Positions 37,059 to 45,167 are shown, counted from the stretch's first letter. The stretch is 64,000 nucleotides of DNA from an uncultured Alcanivorax sp. (GCA_964556345.1 CAZKWA010000004.1:3488-67487); one strand, 5' to 3'. Notes: generated by a model from the letters alone, not told the origin. A program made the numbers and translations.

Positions 37059-37403
37059 ATGTCCGTGGCCGAGGCCATTGAAAGCAAAGTGCGCGACGCC
37101 TTGCCGGTCGCGCACCTGGAGTTGGAAAACGAAAGCCACCGGCACAATGTGCCGGCCAACTCGGAAACCCACTTCAAACTGGTGCTGGTGTCCGACGCCT
37201 TTCAGGGCCAGATGCCGGTGCGGCGCCACCAGGCGGTCTACCAGGCACTGGCCGAGGAGATGAAAGGGCCGGTGCACGCGCTCGCCCTGCATCTGTTCAC
37301 GCCCGCCGAATGGCGCGACCAGGGCGGCGACGTGGCCGACTCCCCGGACTGCCGGGGTGGCGACGGGCGGGCCAGCGAGCGCGCCAAGGGACCCCCGCAA
37401 TGA
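37059..37403 (+). CDS. bolA: BolA-family protein
   Basis: 114 aa. [29 protein letters not shown]...[14 protein letters not shown]...CRGG parallels E. coli BolA. Confidence 0.8.
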
Positions 37404-38356
37404 GTCCGGTGGCGCAGCCGGGCGAAGGCCCCGTGGTGGTGGCGGCGCTCTACCGCTTTACCCGCCTCGACGACTACCAGGCCCTGCGTGAGCCGCTGCT
37501 GGCGGCGATGCTCGAGCGTGACGTGCGCGGCACCCTGTTGCTGGCCCACGAAGGCATCAACGGCACCATTTCCGGCGCCCGCGACGATGTCGATGCGATT
37601 ATCGGCTGGCTGCGCGCGGACCCCCGTTTCCAGGAAATGGAATACAAGGAGTCCTTCGCCGCCGAACACCCCTTCCTGCGCACCAAGGTCAAACTCAAGA
37701 AAGAGATCGTCACCATGGGCGTGGAGGATCTCGACCCCAACGCCAATCGCGGCACCTATCTGGAAGCCGAGGAGTGGAACCGGGTGATCGCCGATCCGCA
37801 AACCCTGGTGATCGACACCCGCAACGACTACGAATACGAAGTCGGCACCTTCCGGGGCGCGGTCAATCCCAACACCAAGGCGTTCCGGGAATTCCCGGAC
37901 TACGTGAAGCAGAACCTGGACCCGACCAAACACAAAAAAGTGGCGATGTTCTGTACCGGCGGCATCCGCTGCGAGAAATCCACCGCCTATCTGCGTGAAC
38001 AGGGCTTCGAGGAGGTCTACCACCTCAAGGGCGGCATCCTGAAGTACCTGGAGGAAACCCCGCCGGAAGCCTCGCTATGGCAGGGCGAATGCTTCGTGTT
38101 CGACGAGCGCGTCACCGTCGATCACGAGCTGCGACCGGGCGGTTACGACCAGTGCCACGCTTGCCGCCGGCCGATCTCCGAGGCCGATAAAACCTCGCCG
38201 TTGTATCGCCAGGGCGTCTCATGCCCCCACTGCCATGATGAATCCACCCCGGAGCAGAAAGCCCGCTTCGCCGAGCGCCAGAAGCAGATCGAGCTGGCCC
38301 GCGAGCGTGGCGAGCCGCACCTGGGGCACGATCCGCGCCAGAGCGACGAACGCTGA
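37400..38356 (+). CDS. trhO: rhodanese-domain tRNA uridine(34) hydroxylase TrhO (YceA/UPF0176)
   Basis: ATG 37400 overlaps the bolA stop (ATGA). [12 protein letters not shown]...[11 protein letters not shown], the rhodanese CTGGIRCE loop and a C-terminal Cys cluster are present. Confidence 0.85.
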
Positions 38357-38528
38357 TCGTCCTGGCCCGTCACCCCCGACGTGGCCGTACGTCACAAACC
38401 CAATTTATTTCTATGCGCTGATTTGCAATCTTTGTCATGACTCGGCAATGATAAGTGGCAGGGGTAATCAAGCTGGGTCCAGAGCGTGGCGAGGGTCTCG
38501 GACAAGGACGAAAAAGGGGGGGATCGAT

Positions 38529-39254
38529 ATGGTTGAAGTGGAGTTCCATATTCTTTCGGACCGCAAGGAGGGATTGCTGAGAGACTTGGGTCAGGTGGTG
38601 GTGAGCAGCCGCTTCAACCTGATCAGCCAGCGCCTCGAGCGGGCCGACGAGGGGGTCCGGCTGCGCCTGTTGCTGCGTGGCCCGGAGGCGGACCTGATGG
38701 ACCTGGAAGAAGGGCTCGCTTGCCACCCCCGGGTTCAGGGCTATGAGTCGATCCGCCACGATGCCGCGGCACCGGTGACCGCCGGGCGCGGGGAACAGCA
38801 GGAACCGGCCGTGCATCAAGTGGAGGCGGTGCTCGGTTCCATAGCCCAGGATTATCCCATCGTTTTTCCCCGTCTGCTGGGCCTGCGCCGGGCTTTGTCG
38901 GAAACGGCCCGCGCCTCGACCTTGCGTTACGCCGGCCACCGCGTGGGGGTCTGGGTCTACAAAAGGGACTATGCCCTGGGCGGCAAGCTCACCTTTCAGG
39001 ACGCCCTCAAAAACATCGCCTTGCCGGCGGTGAAAAACCTGATCGGCGCCGAACTTCACGGACAGCGCCTGCGCATCGAAAGCACGCCGCTGTGTCGTCC
39101 CGGGGAAGGGGGCTTCAACGGTCATTTCTTCAGTGGTTATCTGGAGGGGTTGCTCGGCGAGGCCGATGTCGCGCGGGGGCTCAGGGTGGATGAAATCCGG
39201 TGTTGCAGTGACGGCGCTGAACATTGTGAATTCGAAATAAATACAACGACCTGA
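38529..39254 (+). CDS. ACT-like N-terminal domain plus V4R (4-vinyl reductase-type) ligand-binding domain protein
   Basis: 241 aa from ATG 38529 behind GGGGG. The N-terminus VEVEFHILSDRKEGLLRDLGQVV has an ACT-like pattern. The C-terminus CRPGEGGFNGHFFSGYLEGLLG...EIRCCSDGAEHCEFEI is the V4R Cys pattern. Confidence 0.7.
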   Translation: MVEVEFHILSDRKEGLLRDLGQVVVSSRFNLISQRLERADEGVRLRLLLRGPEADLMDLEEGLACHPRVQGYESIRHDAAAPVTAGRGEQQEPAVHQVEAVLGSIAQDYPIVFPRLLGLRRALSETARASTLRYAGHRVGVWVYKRDYALGGKLTFQDALKNIALPAVKNLIGAELHGQRLRIESTPLCRPGEGGFNGHFFSGYLEGLLGEADVARGLRVDEIRCCSDGAEHCEFEINTTT

Positions 39255-39268
39255 AAACGGGGGAATCT

Positions 39269-40006
39269 ATGGAAGGCGAATACAGCTGGGGCCTGGTGGC
39301 CCTCTCTTATGGCGTTTCAGTGCTGGGCGCGCTGACCGCCCTGCAGTTGGCGATCGGTATCCCGTTGGCGCGCGGGCGGACCCAGCAGTTCATGGCGGTA
39401 CTGGCGGCCGCGCTGGCCATGGGGGGCGGGGCGATCTGGTCGATGCATTTCATCGCCATGCTGGCTTACGAAATGCCCGTGCCGGTGGTCTATGATACCG
39501 GCCTGACCCTGATCTCCGCGATCATCGCCGTGCTGTCATGTGCCCTGGGGCTGGCCATGGCGGGGATTGGCACCTTCACCCTGGGCAAAGTCATCGCCGC
39601 CGGCTCATTCATGGGCCTGGGCGTGGCCGGCATGCACTACACCGGCATGGCGGCGATGCGGATGCCGATGGCGATCCATTATGACCCGGCGCTGTTGCTG
39701 TTGTCGGTGGCCATCGCCATGGGCGCGTCCATGGTGGCCTTGAGGCTGGCGTTCACATTGCGCGGCGGTTGGCAGATGGCCGGTAGCGCGGTGATCATGG
39801 GCGTGGCCGTCTGTGGCATGCACTACACCGGCATGGCCGCGGCACGCTACACCCCCTTGGACCGCGCCGCTCCGGCGGGCGCCTTGGGCACCCTGGGCGG
39901 CGACTACCTGGGGCCGACGATTTTTCTGATCACCGTGGTGTTGCTCGGCGTGGCTTTGATCGTCAGTCATACTCGCCATCAGCGCCGCCAGGCGGTGAGT
40001 ATATAG
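39269..40006 (+). CDS. stand-alone MHYT-domain membrane protein
   Basis: 245 aa, all transmembrane. Three MHYT-type motifs are present (SMHFIAM, GMHYTGM, GMHYTGM). No C-terminal output domain. 14 nt downstream of the V4R gene. Confidence 0.8.
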   Translation: MEGEYSWGLVALSYGVSVLGALTALQLAIGIPLARGRTQQFMAVLAAALAMGGGAIWSMHFIAMLAYEMPVPVVYDTGLTLISAIIAVLSCALGLAMAGIGTFTLGKVIAAGSFMGLGVAGMHYTGMAAMRMPMAIHYDPALLLLSVAIAMGASMVALRLAFTLRGGWQMAGSAVIMGVAVCGMHYTGMAAARYTPLDRAAPAGALGTLGGDYLGPTIFLITVVLLGVALIVSHTRHQRRQAVSI

Positions 40007-41078
40007 GCAGCTCGCCGGTCTGGCCGCGCCAGTCCGGCGCCAGGCCGAAGCGAAGTTCGCCGGTGGTAATGGTGCTGGTGCCGGAAAAGAAAAACATCCC
40101 CAGGGTGATCAACTGCAGGCTGATGATCACCCCGGGTTGCCAGAGCGCCGCCAGCCCCGCCGCCAGGGAGGGCGGGGTGGCGCCCGCTTCGGGCAGCAGC
40201 AGGCTGATCAGCACTCCGTAACCGGCGGCCAGCAACGCCATGCTCTGGTAGGCGGAAAAGCCGCGGCTGCCGCCACGGTAGTCGGCGCGCAGAAATTCCG
40301 AATACACCCGCCACAACTGGCTGCCCACCAGGGCCAGGGCGAACGCCGCCGCGAACCACCCATGGAAAAACAGGCTCATGCACAGCAGCGCCAGGGCGGT
40401 GTGCAGCACGCAGGTGAGCGCCTGGATGGGCACCACCCGCACCGCTTCCATATCGCCGGCGAACGCGATCTTCTTGGTCTTTCCCACGAACACATGATGC
40501 AGGCGGGCGAAGCAGCGGCGGGCCCAGCGCGGCGCCAGGTGCACCGGTTTGCCGTAGCAGCAGCCGAAACTGATGCAGGCCAGGCGGCCGACGCCTTCGC
40601 CGAGCACATAGGCGATCGCCATGGCGGCCAGCAGCGGCATGATCGGCAGGGCGGTGTGCCAGATCGAGCGGGCGGCGGCGTCGGCGCCCCACAGCAGCAG
40701 TGGCGTCAGCATAATGCCGATAAAGCTGGCGCCGCCCACGGTGAAGCCATGGCGGTTCTTCTCCACCACGGTGGCGATGATCTTGGCCGCCGGCAGACAG
40801 ACGGCGAGCACGCCGGCGGTGAGCCCCAGGGCGATGGCCAGCGGTACCTGGGAGGCGCCGGTGAGCACGATGAAAGCGGCCACGCCGACGCCCCCGGCGA
40901 GGCCGGTGAACAGGCCGTAGAACGTCAGATTGAGTCCGCGCCAGGAGCCGTCGTCGTTTTTCGCCAGGGGCAGGGAGGCGACGAACTGCCAGCGCTCGCG
41001 GGGCAGCTCTCGGAACAACACCCGGTAAACGACGGCGAACACCAGGGCCAGGGCCAGTATCAACAGATCCGCGTGCAT
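39963..41078 (-). CDS. Lgt-family (prolipoprotein diacylglyceryl transferase-like) membrane protein
   Basis: 371 aa polytopic protein. GEGVGRLACISFGCCYGKP resembles the GR..C...GCCYG variant of the Lgt family signature. Its 3' end overlaps the MHYT gene by 44 nt. Confidence 0.55.
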   Translation of the reverse strand: MHADLLILALALVFAVVYRVLFRELPRERWQFVASLPLAKNDDGSWRGLNLTFYGLFTGLAGGVGVAAFIVLTGASQVPLAIALGLTAGVLAVCLPAAKIIATVVEKNRHGFTVGGASFIGIMLTPLLLWGADAAARSIWHTALPIMPLLAAMAIAYVLGEGVGRLACISFGCCYGKPVHLAPRWARRCFARLHHVFVGKTKKIAFAGDMEAVRVVPIQALTCVLHTALALLCMSLFFHGWFAAAFALALVGSQLWRVYSEFLRADYRGGSRGFSAYQSMALLAAGYGVLISLLLPEAGATPPSLAAGLAALWQPGVIISLQLITLGMFFFSGTSTITTGELRFGLAPDWRGQTGELPIYSPPGGADGEYD

Positions 41079-42855: not shown

Positions 42856-43446
42856 ATGAGCGACGACAACCGATACCATGTACGCCTGACCGGTGAACTG
42901 ATGGCCGGCGCCGACGCCGCCGAGGTGGCGGCGAACCTGGCGCGCCTGTTCAAGATGCCTGAGCAGAAGGCCGCCCTGTTGATCAACGGTACGCCCAGGG
43001 TGGTGAAGAAAGACGCCGACGAGGCCACCGCGCGAAAGTTCCAGGTCGCCCTGCGGCAGGCCGGGGCGCGCTGCGAACTGCTGCCGGTGAACGACGAGGC
43101 GGCTCCCGCGGCGCCGACGCCGGCACCCCGGGACGCGGCGCCTGAAGAGCCGGCGCCCCGGGAGCCGGCGGCATCACAAGCCGTCGCGGCTTCGGCGACC
43201 GCCGCGCCTCAGAGTGGGGACCTTGAAACGGTGGGGACGATCCGCACCGGCGGTACCGGTTTCAGCGGTGCCTTTGAAGTGGCGCCGGTGGGCGCGGATC
43301 TGGATACCTCGGAGAAGGACCAACCGGCGGCGCCGGATGTCAGCCACCTTTCCATGGCCGAGCCCGGCGCCGACCTGGAGCCGCTTAAACCGCGCCAGGA
43401 CGTGGTGGTGCCGGACATCAGCCACCTGTCGATCAAACCGGACTAG
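42856..43446 (+). CDS. hypothetical protein with Pro/Ala-rich linker and repeated PD(V/I)SHLS motif
   Basis: 196 aa with coding-type GC3 bias. It has a small N-terminal globular domain, a low-complexity middle, and two PDVSHLSM / PDISHLSI repeats at the C-terminus. Confidence 0.55.
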   Translation: MSDDNRYHVRLTGELMAGADAAEVAANLARLFKMPEQKAALLINGTPRVVKKDADEATARKFQVALRQAGARCELLPVNDEAAPAAPTPAPRDAAPEEPAPREPAASQAVAASATAAPQSGDLETVGTIRTGGTGFSGAFEVAPVGADLDTSEKDQPAAPDVSHLSMAEPGADLEPLKPRQDVVVPDISHLSIKPD

Positions 43447-44018: not shown

Positions 44019-45167
44019 TTAATTGGGACGGCAAGGATACCCGCTTGCCGGCGCCCCTGAAACCGGCGGCGCGCAGTTGGTTCGCAGGGTGTCGCGGCCC
44101 GCGGCTTTCGCCTGATAGAGGGCCTGGTCGGCGCGCTCGATGAAGGCCAGGGCGGTTTCGCCCCATTGGTGGCCGGCCAGCCCGCAGGACAGGGTCACCC
44201 GCAGCGACGGGTCGAAACCGTAACGCTGTTCGGCGAACTTCTCCCGGAGACGGTTCATGGCCGCCTCGCAGTCGGCGTGGTCGGACTGCGGGAACAGCAC
44301 CACGAATTCCTCGCCGCCGTAGCGGGCGAGCACGTCGGAGCGCCGCAGGCACTGGCTGGCGAGGTCGGCGAAGCGTTTCAGCACCTCGTCGCCGGCCGGA
44401 TGGCCGTAGGTGTCATTGATGCGCTTGAAGTGATCCAGGTCCACCAGCGCGATGTGCAGGGGAATGTGCTCCCGGTCGGTGCGCGACAATTCCTCTTCCA
44501 GCCGCTCGAGAAAGTGGCGGCGGTTGAACAGGTCGGTGAGTTCATCGCGGATGGCGATGCTGGCCAGGCGGTCGTGGGCCTGGCGCAGCGATTCGCGCTG
44601 GGTCCGGAAGCGCTGCTGAAGATTGTGGATGTAACCGCCCATGTACACGAACCAGGCGAGGATCAGCGCCAGCACGCCCCATTGGCTCAACGACAGGGCG
44701 AGAATCTGGGTCAGTGGCAGTTCCACCCATTCGTAGACCAGCAGCACCGTGAACGACAGCTGGGCGGTGACCGCCATCACGATCTGCTGGCGGCGGTCCA
44801 GGGAGAAGACGCCAAAGGTCATCATGATCAGATAAAGACTGAGCAAGGCGCCACGCAGCTCCCGAGCGTAATGGAGCAGCAGGGTGATCACCAGGATACC
44901 GGCGAACATCTGCGCCATGGTCAGGCTGGGGTCCTTGAAACGCTCGGTGAAGCCGCTGCGCACCAGGACGAACACCACCAGATTGATCGCGAACAGGCTG
45001 CCGAAGATCACCAGATGGGGGGTGCGCGGGTCAAAGGCGGCGATTTCCACGCCGACCACGGTGCCGGCCCAGAGCAGCAGGTAGGAGTAGATCGCCATCA
45101 GTTGCCGGCGCAACCGCAGGGCGCGTTCGGGACGGTGGGAAAGAACCAGCTTGGTATCGTTATTCAA
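44019..45167 (-). CDS. membrane-anchored diguanylate cyclase (GGDEF)
   Basis: 382 aa. About 6 N-terminal TM helices, then RDELTDLFNRRHF...LDHFKRINDTYGHPAGDEVL...RYGGEEFVVLF. Confidence 0.9.
   Translation of the reverse strand: MNNDTKLVLSHRPERALRLRRQLMAIYSYLLLWAGTVVGVEIAAFDPRTPHLVIFGSLFAINLVVFVLVRSGFTERFKDPSLTMAQMFAGILVITLLLHYARELRGALLSLYLIMMTFGVFSLDRRQQIVMAVTAQLSFTVLLVYEWVELPLTQILALSLSQWGVLALILAWFVYMGGYIHNLQQRFRTQRESLRQAHDRLASIAIRDELTDLFNRRHFLERLEEELSRTDREHIPLHIALVDLDHFKRINDTYGHPAGDEVLKRFADLASQCLRRSDVLARYGGEEFVVLFPQSDHADCEAAMNRLREKFAEQRYGFDPSLRVTLSCGLAGHQWGETALAFIERADQALYQAKAAGRDTLRTNCAPPVSGAPASGYPCRPN

Follow-up and report, generated by a model that had tools for sequence, protein, structure and literature searches.

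A 64,000-nt stretch of DNA from an uncultured Alcanivorax sp. (GCA_964556345.1, CAZKWA010000004.1:3488-67487; hereafter the window, to whose full length all positions refer) carries two plus-strand genes, named here A (38529-39254) and B (39269-40006), which may constitute a self-contained two-gene operon encoding a split, non-covalent sensor. We put this reading forward tentatively, with a little under even confidence. Gene A (ATG at 38529, TGA ending at 39254) encodes an ACT-linker-V4R protein of 241 amino acids (aa) predicted to be cytoplasmic, and gene B (ATG at 39269, TAG ending at 40006) encodes a stand-alone MHYT protein of 245 aa with seven transmembrane (TM) helices. An earlier description made from the sequence alone (the original prediction) had proposed such an output-less pair. 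The V4R and MHYT profiles both match, the adjacency is kept in other genomes, and the MHYT open reading frame (ORF) is full-length and not truncated. Neither protein has an enzymatic or DNA-binding domain, as had been stated, and the same is true of all 211 representatives of the protein A family. Since both profiles match, the adjacency is conserved, B is full-length and no output domain is present, a dedicated pair of two output-less proteins that forms a split sensor via protein contacts is probably the most economical reading.

The two genes are co-directional and separated by 14 nt, exactly as predicted. The spacer (39255-39268, plus strand, AAACGGGGGAATCT) carries a Shine-Dalgarno (SD)-like GGGGGA, and a 14-nt gap is also found in the close relatives L161-L163 (L-numbers denote surveyed relative loci). 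The short gap and gene B's own SD imply that A and B are probably co-transcribed and co-expressed.

Conservation of the gene pair

Surveys were run over a species-representative genome collection, anchored on B and on A separately. The B-anchored sample consisted of the best 80 of 574 tblastn-confirmed loci, drawn from at least 600 pattern matches, together with the window and three metagenome loci. Of 65 stand-alone MHYT loci, 44 have an A homologue, detected by the family-A profile, directly 5' in the same orientation, vs none of 19 fused ones (Fisher p = 4e-8); this paired fraction is inflated by the ranking of the sample on similarity to the window protein. The A-anchored survey used the pattern G[AVT]WVYKRD, which was derived from a narrow alignment, favours gammaproteobacteria and is biased to Lysobacterales and Microbulbifer; 73 of its 77 loci have a stand-alone MHYT gene 24-228 nt 3' on the same strand. 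Four loci deviate, namely the odd locus L132 and three orphan A paralogues of Dyella (L135, L139, L156). The order is A then B throughout, the gap in other genomes measures 14-228 nt, and the adjacency recurs in >110 loci; given this recurrence it exceeds chance. The V4R-MHYT neighbourhood anticipated by the original prediction is thus a recurrent arrangement.

The pair was found in eight taxon groups from at least two phyla: Lysobacterales, Microbulbifer, Psychrobacter, Burkholderiales metagenome-assembled genomes (MAGs), Acidobacteriota/Thermoanaerobaculia, Kangiellaceae, Alcanivoracaceae and the window's own clade. Most carriers belong to Lysobacter, Dyella, Microbulbifer and Psychrobacter. 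With a frequency of ~0.05% of species-representative genomes, the pair is rare and phylogenetically scattered. When the ORFs within ~4-5 kb were clustered across the eight groups, only A and B were common to them, and no third gene or output gene travels with the pair. By Pfam assignment the flanks are unrelated between lineages (PepQ, GcvP, MFS, SLT, amylase, M23 peptidase, hslVU/ubiE). As for the GGDEF and TrhO-like neighbours seen in the window, each accompanies the pair in just one further sampled group.

The membrane protein B

Pfam PF03707 (MHYT) matches B in four stretches at 141.4 bits against a cut-off of 21. The AlphaFold2 (AF2) model of B has a predicted local distance difference test (pLDDT) score of 92 and a predicted template-modelling score (pTM) of 0.88, with seven TM helices at aa 7-28, 37-66, 77-99, 105-128, 140-163, 167-190 and 214-244; the predicted topology places the N-terminus outside and the C-terminus inside. 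Three Met-His-Tyr/Phe motifs, the proposed copper ligands, are located at the periplasm-proximal ends of TM2, TM4 and TM6: MHF at aa 59-61 (39443-39451), MHYT at aa 122-125 (39632-39643) and MHYT at aa 184-187 (39818-39829). Their residues M59, H60, F61, M122, H123, Y124, M184, H185 and Y186 are invariant in 50 homologues, and whether an MHYT protein is paired, unpaired or fused makes no difference to its copper-ligand motifs. B stops 13 aa after TM7, with a basic cytoplasmic tail in the AF2 model (39965-40003) and no covalent output domain C-terminal to MHYT. The description of the second protein as 245 aa with three MHYT-type motifs and nothing else therefore holds. B belongs to a large family of stand-alone MHYT proteins of 245-251 aa that are 55-73% identical to it and share the same ends, with members from Microbulbifer, Lysobacter, Pseudoxanthomonas, Dyella and others. 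CoxC's MHYT domain acts as a copper-dependent CO sensor with O2 as antagonist, and the existence of single-domain MHYT proteins has been acknowledged (PMC11347149).

Two residues set the paired MHYT proteins apart. Pro32 (39362-39364) is present in 44 of 44 paired proteins vs 4 of 21 unpaired and 1 of 19 fused ones (Fisher p = 1e-18), and Gly99 (39563-39565) in 91% of paired vs 33% of unpaired and 21% of fused ones. In the AF2 model both map to short cytoplasmic turns of B (aa 29-36 and 100-104), which are candidate positions where a cytoplasmic partner such as A would have to dock. Comparison of the B model with the PDB by Foldseek gave nothing significant (best E 0.23, template-modelling score ~0.3), so that a transporter, channel or enzyme reading of B is unsupported; no MHYT chain in the PDB turned up in this fold search.

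The soluble protein A

The AF2 model of protein A has a mean pLDDT of 85 and exceeds 90 over aa 1-77. This N-terminal unit (38529-38759) shows a beta-alpha-beta-beta-alpha-beta order of elements (E2-10, H16-26, E30-39, E42-51, H53-64, E71-77). In Foldseek searches it superposes on the ACT domains of PGDH (1sc6), homoserine dehydrogenase (6dzs) and Rel (3ibw and 6lxg), and the NikR C-terminal domain is matched likewise, with root-mean-square deviations of 1.7-2.5 A over 73-82 columns. No Pfam ACT match was found in the window protein at E up to 1; weak sub-threshold matches occur in relatives, to ACT in 3 of 18 (best E 1.3e-3) and to ACT_AHAS_ss in 3 of 18 (best E 7.8e-4). Within the beta1-alpha1 loop (DRKEGLL), 91 of 99 A homologues retain Gly15. 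Based on the modelled fold, the conservation of Gly15 and the weak matches in relatives, we call the domain ACT-like; the ACT assignment of the original prediction is accepted on fold and not on profile.

A disordered Ala/Pro-rich linker of variable length follows (aa 78-94, 38760-38810; pLDDT <50 at aa 79-89). It forms a large indel region in the family-A alignment, and a longer linker explains the members of 330-358 aa. The C-terminal part (aa 95-238, 38811-39242) is modelled as a helical plus alpha/beta domain and matches the Bet3/TRAPP structures 1wc9, 2pwn and 1sz7 (Foldseek E 8e-5 to 2e-4, probability 1.0). Within it, aa 182-238 (39072-39242) match Pfam PF02830 (V4R) at 31.1 bits against a cut-off of 31. 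This borderline score is backed by V4R matches in 16 of 18 diverse family-A members (best E 1.2e-11) and by the Bet3/TRAPP fold, so the V4R domain with its Cys pattern stands as originally described. The same domain contains the family signature WVYKRDYALG (aa 142-151, 38952-38981). The best-conserved residues of A are G136, G140, Y144-K-R-D147, G151, P166-A167, F200, G203, G207, C225 and C233; Trp142 is kept in 88% of the homologues, and the best-conserved His of the V4R half in 49%.

Family A comprises 44 clusters when grouped at 90% identity. From 1.84 billion representative proteins, an exhaustive profile search retrieved 211 family-A representatives (50% identity), all of at most 358 aa; none of these 211 is fused to MHYT, HTH, AAA+ or an enzyme. 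The only PDB sequence matches of the family-A profile, all weak, are to the V4R protein MJ1460 (E 0.15) and to the H-NOX structures 2kii and 4u9b (E 0.6), and they are confined to the zinc-motif strand. As judged from its sequences, the family is small, architecturally uniform and nearly confined to the MHYT-pair context, and it looks like a specialised partner.

Predicted metal site of A

The Cys pattern of A behaves like a four-ligand metal site, and its register (E-x2-C-x7-C) and conserved ligands point to a predicted tetrahedral, probably zinc-binding site at 39093-39227 on the plus strand. The residues concerned are Cys189 (39093-39095), Glu222 (39192-39194), Cys225 and Cys226 (39201-39206) and Cys233 (39225-39227). 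The family register is C-x23-[E/H/N/Q]-x2-C-x7-C, in which 98 of 98 homologues carry C225 and C233, and 85 of 99 the canonical first Cys, position 198. Position 198 is Gly in the window protein. All nine homologues without C198, the window's included, keep both C189 and E222, and every homologue without E222 carries an additional Cys. Four candidate ligands can be counted in 98 of 99 homologues, the remaining one being truncated at the C-terminal motif.

Related sites have been described in several sensors. MopR, CapR and PoxR contain a structural zinc site of three Cys and one Glu (PMC10715001), and the V4R domain of MsvR has three conserved redox-active Cys, including C-x7-C, that confer redox sensitivity (PMC3729527). 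The Shewanella oneidensis H-NOX zinc site is made of Cys139/His161/Cys164/Cys172, and its equivalent in Vibrio cholerae H-NOX (Cys149, Gln171, Cys174, Cys182) is a thiol switch governing the inhibition of HnoK, the adjacent kinase (PMC7108781). By motif comparison the predicted metal site of A corresponds to the zinc sites of MopR-type sensors, MsvR and H-NOX and not to a ligand pocket, and the suggestion that the Cys motif hints at a ligand is accordingly dropped. Heme binding in the manner of H-NOX was also considered for A and is disfavored: no His is conserved in the V4R half, which makes such heme ligation unlikely.

Proposed mechanism and alternatives

In the split sensor that we propose, B would bind copper via its three Met-His-Tyr/Phe motifs near the outer membrane face and would sense either one of the diatomic gases O2, CO and NO or the redox or copper status. 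The resulting conformational change may be read by A at the cytoplasmic turns carrying Pro32 and Gly99 and at the basic tail; A would then serve this MHYT clade specifically, as an adaptor or co-sensor in the cytoplasm. The Cys3-Glu/Cys4 zinc site predicted in the V4R/H-NOX-like domain of A could be a thiol redox switch, and its ACT-like domain could be a binding site for a small metabolite or a dimerisation element. Whether A is bound or released, or which conformation it adopts, would be communicated by protein contact to targets that we take to be unlinked, because no output gene travels with the pair. A zinc site that controls a partner encoded next door, as in H-NOX, would be a parallel for A by analogy. 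A more elaborate version, which we regard as doubtful, is a dual-input coincidence detector in which a copper-based gas or redox signal at B is combined with thiol-redox (Zn-Cys) and metabolite (ACT) inputs in A and relayed by partner switching or membrane sequestration to unlinked targets; stand-alone MHYT proteins would then be hubs with interchangeable partners (ACT-V4R, CheX-like, REC).

Several points weigh against a split sensor. Physical contact between A and B is conjectural, with indirect support from the modelled position of the paired-clade Pro32 and Gly99 in the turns. The docking surface that the B model offers appears small, namely very short cytoplasmic loops and a 13-aa tail. 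The signal direction from B to A is an assumption. Metal binding in the window protein is postulated from the compensating Cys189 and Glu222, the canonical first Cys being missing. The exhaustive profile search returned no Rosetta-stone fusion of A with MHYT. Covariation between A and B (MI-APC, 96 unique pairs) was underpowered at an effective number of sequences (Neff) of ~43 and showed no enrichment of cytoplasmic B columns. The ranking of the B-anchored sample, noted above, inflates the pairing. The genes can also occur apart, as the three orphan A genes and an MHYT gene without adjacent A (L018) demonstrate, and in some Dyella loci a PALP gene is followed directly by MHYT with no A between.

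The main rival to the split sensor reverses the flow of information in a GlnK-AmtB-like manner: A would be the redox or metabolite sensor, using its zinc-thiolate and ACT pocket, and B a membrane effector gated by A docking, e.g., a copper-dependent or a gas- or metal-handling membrane protein, with membrane sequestration of A as a possible contribution. The gene order and autonomy of the pair resemble glnK-amtB, by analogy only; ACT domains are typically ligand-binding and regulatory, and V4R/H-NOX folds are typically sensors (PMC10715001, PMC7108781). If B were the endpoint, the absence of a linked output gene would be expected, and A is missing from all the fused, clearly sensory MHYT loci sampled (0/19). 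However, wherever MHYT has been characterised or is fused, it is the N-terminal input domain, and CoxC senses CO via copper (PMC11347149). No transporter, channel or enzyme in the PDB resembles the B model, and the full conservation of the copper motifs in B and the fused sensors speaks for a shared sensory chemistry. On balance we consider the reversed flow unlikely.

Mere co-expression is improbable in our judgment. Under it A and B would act independently in the same condition, e.g., within an oxygen or redox regulon, and form no complex. In its favor, some A paralogues are orphans and some MHYT genes are without A, the covariation analysis gave no interface signal, and an FNR/CRP-like box 5' of A in Dyella, orphans included, suggests shared regulation. 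Yet order, orientation and short spacing are kept across distant phyla while all flanks change, which is a signature of interacting products; family A is essentially confined to the MHYT context, and the paired-clade residues sit on the cytoplasmic turns of B. Slightly more improbable again is a role of A in assembly or maintenance of B, as a Cys-rich metallochaperone or quality-control factor for the copper centre, with B signalling laterally to kinases or cyclases elsewhere. The conserved Cys cluster, the tight linkage with A first, the copper requirement of the CoxC MHYT domain for its CO response (PMC11347149) and the existence of B-type proteins without adjacent A (L018, L053/056/066), which fits a dispensable helper, would agree with it. 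The motif of A, however, matches a buried zinc site (structural in MopR, a redox switch in H-NOX) and not a surface Cu(I) CxxC (PMC10715001, PMC7108781), A is predicted to be cytoplasmic while the MHYT ligands lie near the periplasmic face, fused MHYT sensors need the same copper centre and never have A (0/19), and an ACT domain is atypical of metallochaperones. We reject, and give virtually no credence to, the idea that the MHYT ORF is what is left of a longer MHYT-kinase or MHYT-GGDEF protein, whether by truncation or as a pseudogene. The T2SS_HK histidine kinase model (NF038348) does align over its N-terminal 236 of 574 positions, but only the MHYT part is covered, and the 161 bits fall far short of the cut-off of 450. 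B has the full length and the common ends of its 245-251-aa family and seven TM helices at pLDDT 92, the convergent Lgt-like gene adjoins the end of B with no downstream coding remnant, and the sole apparent long form (a 1031-aa MHYT in L098) arises artificially from sequence masked as N. The split sensor stays our preferred, tentative reading.

Unpaired and rearranged loci

Some loci depart from the common arrangement. In L018 (MAG SZAS-108) the MHYT protein is 90% identical to the paired one of L011 (Solilutibacter silvestris), and there is no ACT-V4R gene 5' of it; the ORF found there, on the opposite strand, is by eye what we take to be a pseudouridine-synthase gene (not profile-checked). 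This suggests that A was recently lost or relocated while B was retained. Microbulbifer sp. HZ11 (L112) has A followed by two tandem MHYT genes, the second ~1 kb further, and Microbulbifer litoralis has one paired MHYT gene and an unpaired MHYT paralogue elsewhere in the genome (L012 vs L026/L085). The orphan ACT-V4R paralogues of Dyella nitratireducens and of a Dyella MAG are preceded by a gene for a heme-oxygenase-like 'iron-containing redox enzyme' of ~303 aa (L001 4850-5758, the same gene as L135 2829-3758; L156 2807-3775), which scores 27.5 bits with Pfam Haem_oxygenas_2, just below the cut-off of 28.9. Its product may be an alternative partner of orphan A.

Stand-alone MHYT genes without A adjoin genes for CheX-domain proteins in Thermoanaerobaculia or for receiver-domain proteins in Cellvibrionaceae and Marinimicrobium (L045 280-1179; L046 4108-4974; L044 3877-4977; divergent upstream genes in L039, L040, L052, L061 and L070). 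In L028 (5692-9471), an Acidobacteriota locus, genes for a receiver protein and a CheA-like hybrid kinase come after the A-B pair. These arrangements support the general idea that single-domain MHYT proteins signal via separately encoded partners.

Start and upstream region of gene A

The start of gene A at 38529 is backed by its homologues, all of which open with M-[VI]-E-[VL]-E at this position, and an SD-like run, GGGGGGGA, ends 7 nt 5' of the ATG. A longer in-frame ORF from 38235 also exists; 38529 was chosen over it because of the homologue N-termini and the GGGGGGGA run. The intergenic region 5' of gene A (38357-38528, plus strand) presumably holds the promoter. The original prediction had called it a 172-bp AT-rich promoter region. 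The length is correct; the region is AT-rich only relative to the window (GC 54.7% vs 66.4%), and the promoter label is unproven, as a consensus scan found no sigma-70 promoter in it. No sigma-54, FNR, Fur, NsrR or CueR-like sites were found in the window's own region 5' of gene A. Phylogenetic footprinting of 38357-38528 is uninformative because the region is 95% identical in the close relatives L161-L163.

In Dyella-type genomes a palindrome of the form [A/T]TGAx-N4-xTCAC, e.g., TTGATGCCAATCAC, lies ~86-92 nt 5' of the gene A start (L002, L021, L091, L093, L100, L105, L106, L107, L116, L125, L135, L139, L155 and L156). It also precedes orphan A paralogues, and its half-sites are kept while the spacer is variable, a pattern as expected for a putative FNR/ANR- or CRP/Clp-family operator. 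The window's own region 5' of gene A has no palindrome of this type.

Genomic neighborhood and lineage

Upstream of the pair are a BolA-like gene (37059-37403) and a TrhO-like UPF0176/rhodanese gene (together 37059-38356). The start of the latter is ambiguous: the longest ORF begins at 37310, and homologues (318 aa, L161, L162) imply ~37397. The TrhO-like protein is 84% identical to its counterpart in Alloalcanivorax marinus, the nearest reference species, on the basis of which the window is placed in Alcanivoracaceae. Neither A nor B was found near the TrhO-like gene in 80 TrhO-anchored loci, Alloalcanivorax marinus included (within 3 kb of its syntenic gene), and no Alloalcanivorax genome is among the best 80 of 574 MHYT matches or the 77 A-pattern matches. 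Since syntenic relatives are without A or B, we regard the pair as an accessory, mobile two-gene unit. In L164 (5222-8997), L165 and L003, the next-closest relatives after L161-L163 with B ~70-73% identical, the inserted pair has hslVU on one side and a DUF8198-ubiE-ubiJ(SCP2)-ubiB-hisE-tatABC cluster on the other. Set against the BolA, TrhO-like and Lgt-like surroundings in the window, this hslVU/ubiE context shows that the module is mobile. Two Dyella loci (L001, L021) have a TrhO-like gene within 3-4 kb of gene A as well, probably by coincidence.

Hydrocarbon sensing, which the original prediction had found suggestive in such a genome, loses its footing here, as most carriers are not Alcanivoracaceae and the pair was not seen near the syntenic gene in Alloalcanivorax marinus. 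Sensing of hydrocarbons or phenols is disfavored by the taxonomic spread, by the Alloalcanivorax negatives and by the failed assignment of A to the XylR, BchJ or MsvR families.

On the 3' side a convergent membrane ORF of 371 aa (39963-41078, minus strand) overlaps the 3' end of gene B with its own 3' end by 44 nt (39963-40006). It has a weak match to Lgt (prolipoprotein diacylglyceryl transferase, 28.4 bits), and no terminator-like structure was found between gene B and this Lgt-like ORF. A 196-aa ORF at 42856-43446, between GMC oxidoreductase and UPF0149 genes, has an Ala/Pro/Glu-rich C-terminal half and no Pfam match. The GGDEF gene mentioned in the original prediction is indeed present ~4 kb 3' of the pair (44019-45167, opposite strand); a functional link to it was not borne out, such a neighbor being found near the pair in only one other sampled locus.

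Novelty and significance

MHYT was predicted to be a sensor more than 20 years ago, and experimental support came only in 2024, for the fused protein CoxC (PMC11347149). The literature searchable here does not address how single-domain MHYT proteins transmit a signal, and no searchable publication was found to connect V4R or 4-vinyl reductase with MHYT in such a way. All the domains are already known, as is the logic of a stand-alone sensor beside an adjacent partner; for the pairing itself no prior description was found. A co-inherited soluble partner would be a concrete candidate route for signaling by output-less MHYT proteins, and A could help stabilise the MHYT protein for structure determination. 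If the dual-input reading were true, the pair would be the first recognised MHYT sensor that signals via a dedicated non-covalent cytoplasmic transducer. The V4R/H-NOX-fold domain also appears here in a new architecture, joined to ACT and placed alongside a membrane sensor and not an enzyme or a DNA-binding domain. As the module is rare and scattered, its importance is specialist rather than general.

Comparison with known systems

With the V4R sensors of the XylR/DmpR/MopR/PoxR sigma-54 activators, BchJ and MsvR, protein A has in common the V4R C-terminal motif and the site of three Cys plus Glu/Cys. The kinship with XylR/DmpR-type regulators or BchJ that had been suggested was not upheld: profile scans found no XylR_N, AAA+ or HTH domain in A, and the scores with BchJ (TIGR02019, 14.1 bits vs 74.3) and MsvR (NF053755, 17.3 bits vs 220) are far below the cut-offs, with approximately the last 40 residues of A aligned. 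XylR-type, BchJ and MsvR proteins were not retrieved by the family-A profile. No alignment of A to MopR-type sensors was obtained on which their phenol-anchoring His/Trp dyad could be placed; Trp142 is kept in 88% of homologues, and in the V4R half no His exceeds 49%. The archaeal REC-MetOD1 response regulators carry a V4R/H-NOX-like domain with a three-Cys cluster in the output position (PMC5847659), and one family-A member matches MetOD1 weakly (E 0.011). Unlike A, these proteins are archaeal, fused to REC, and without an ACT domain or MHYT partner.

Stand-alone H-NOX proteins (H-NOX/HnoK, H-NOX/diguanylate cyclase) are small, output-less sensor-fold proteins encoded beside their partners, as is A, for which contact with its neighbor is proposed by analogy. 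H-NOX belongs to the same fold group as the C-terminal domain of A, with the [H/Q/E]-x2-C-x7-C site in common, and HNOB is related to V4R (PMC5847659). In contrast to H-NOX, A has no HNOB (PF07700) Pfam match and no conserved proximal His, it has an extra N-terminal ACT-like domain, and its neighbor is a sensor-type module and not a kinase or cyclase.

In glnK-amtB, a soluble ferredoxin-like regulator docks onto the membrane protein encoded with it. The likeness to our pair, an analogy only, lies in an autonomous and widely transferred two-gene operon with a small soluble ligand-binding protein first and a membrane protein second. There is no homology: A is ACT plus V4R and not PII, B is MHYT and not an Amt channel, and no transport is indicated for B.

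The closest known counterparts of B are the MHYT one-component sensors (CoxC with MHYT-LytTR, MucR and NbdA with MHYT-GGDEF-EAL, and the MHYT histidine kinases), which share the 7-TM module and all three motifs. In these sensors the output domain is covalent, whereas B ends 13 residues after TM7 and has a separately encoded soluble partner in its place, and Pro32 and Gly99, in the cytoplasmic turns, set the paired clade apart.

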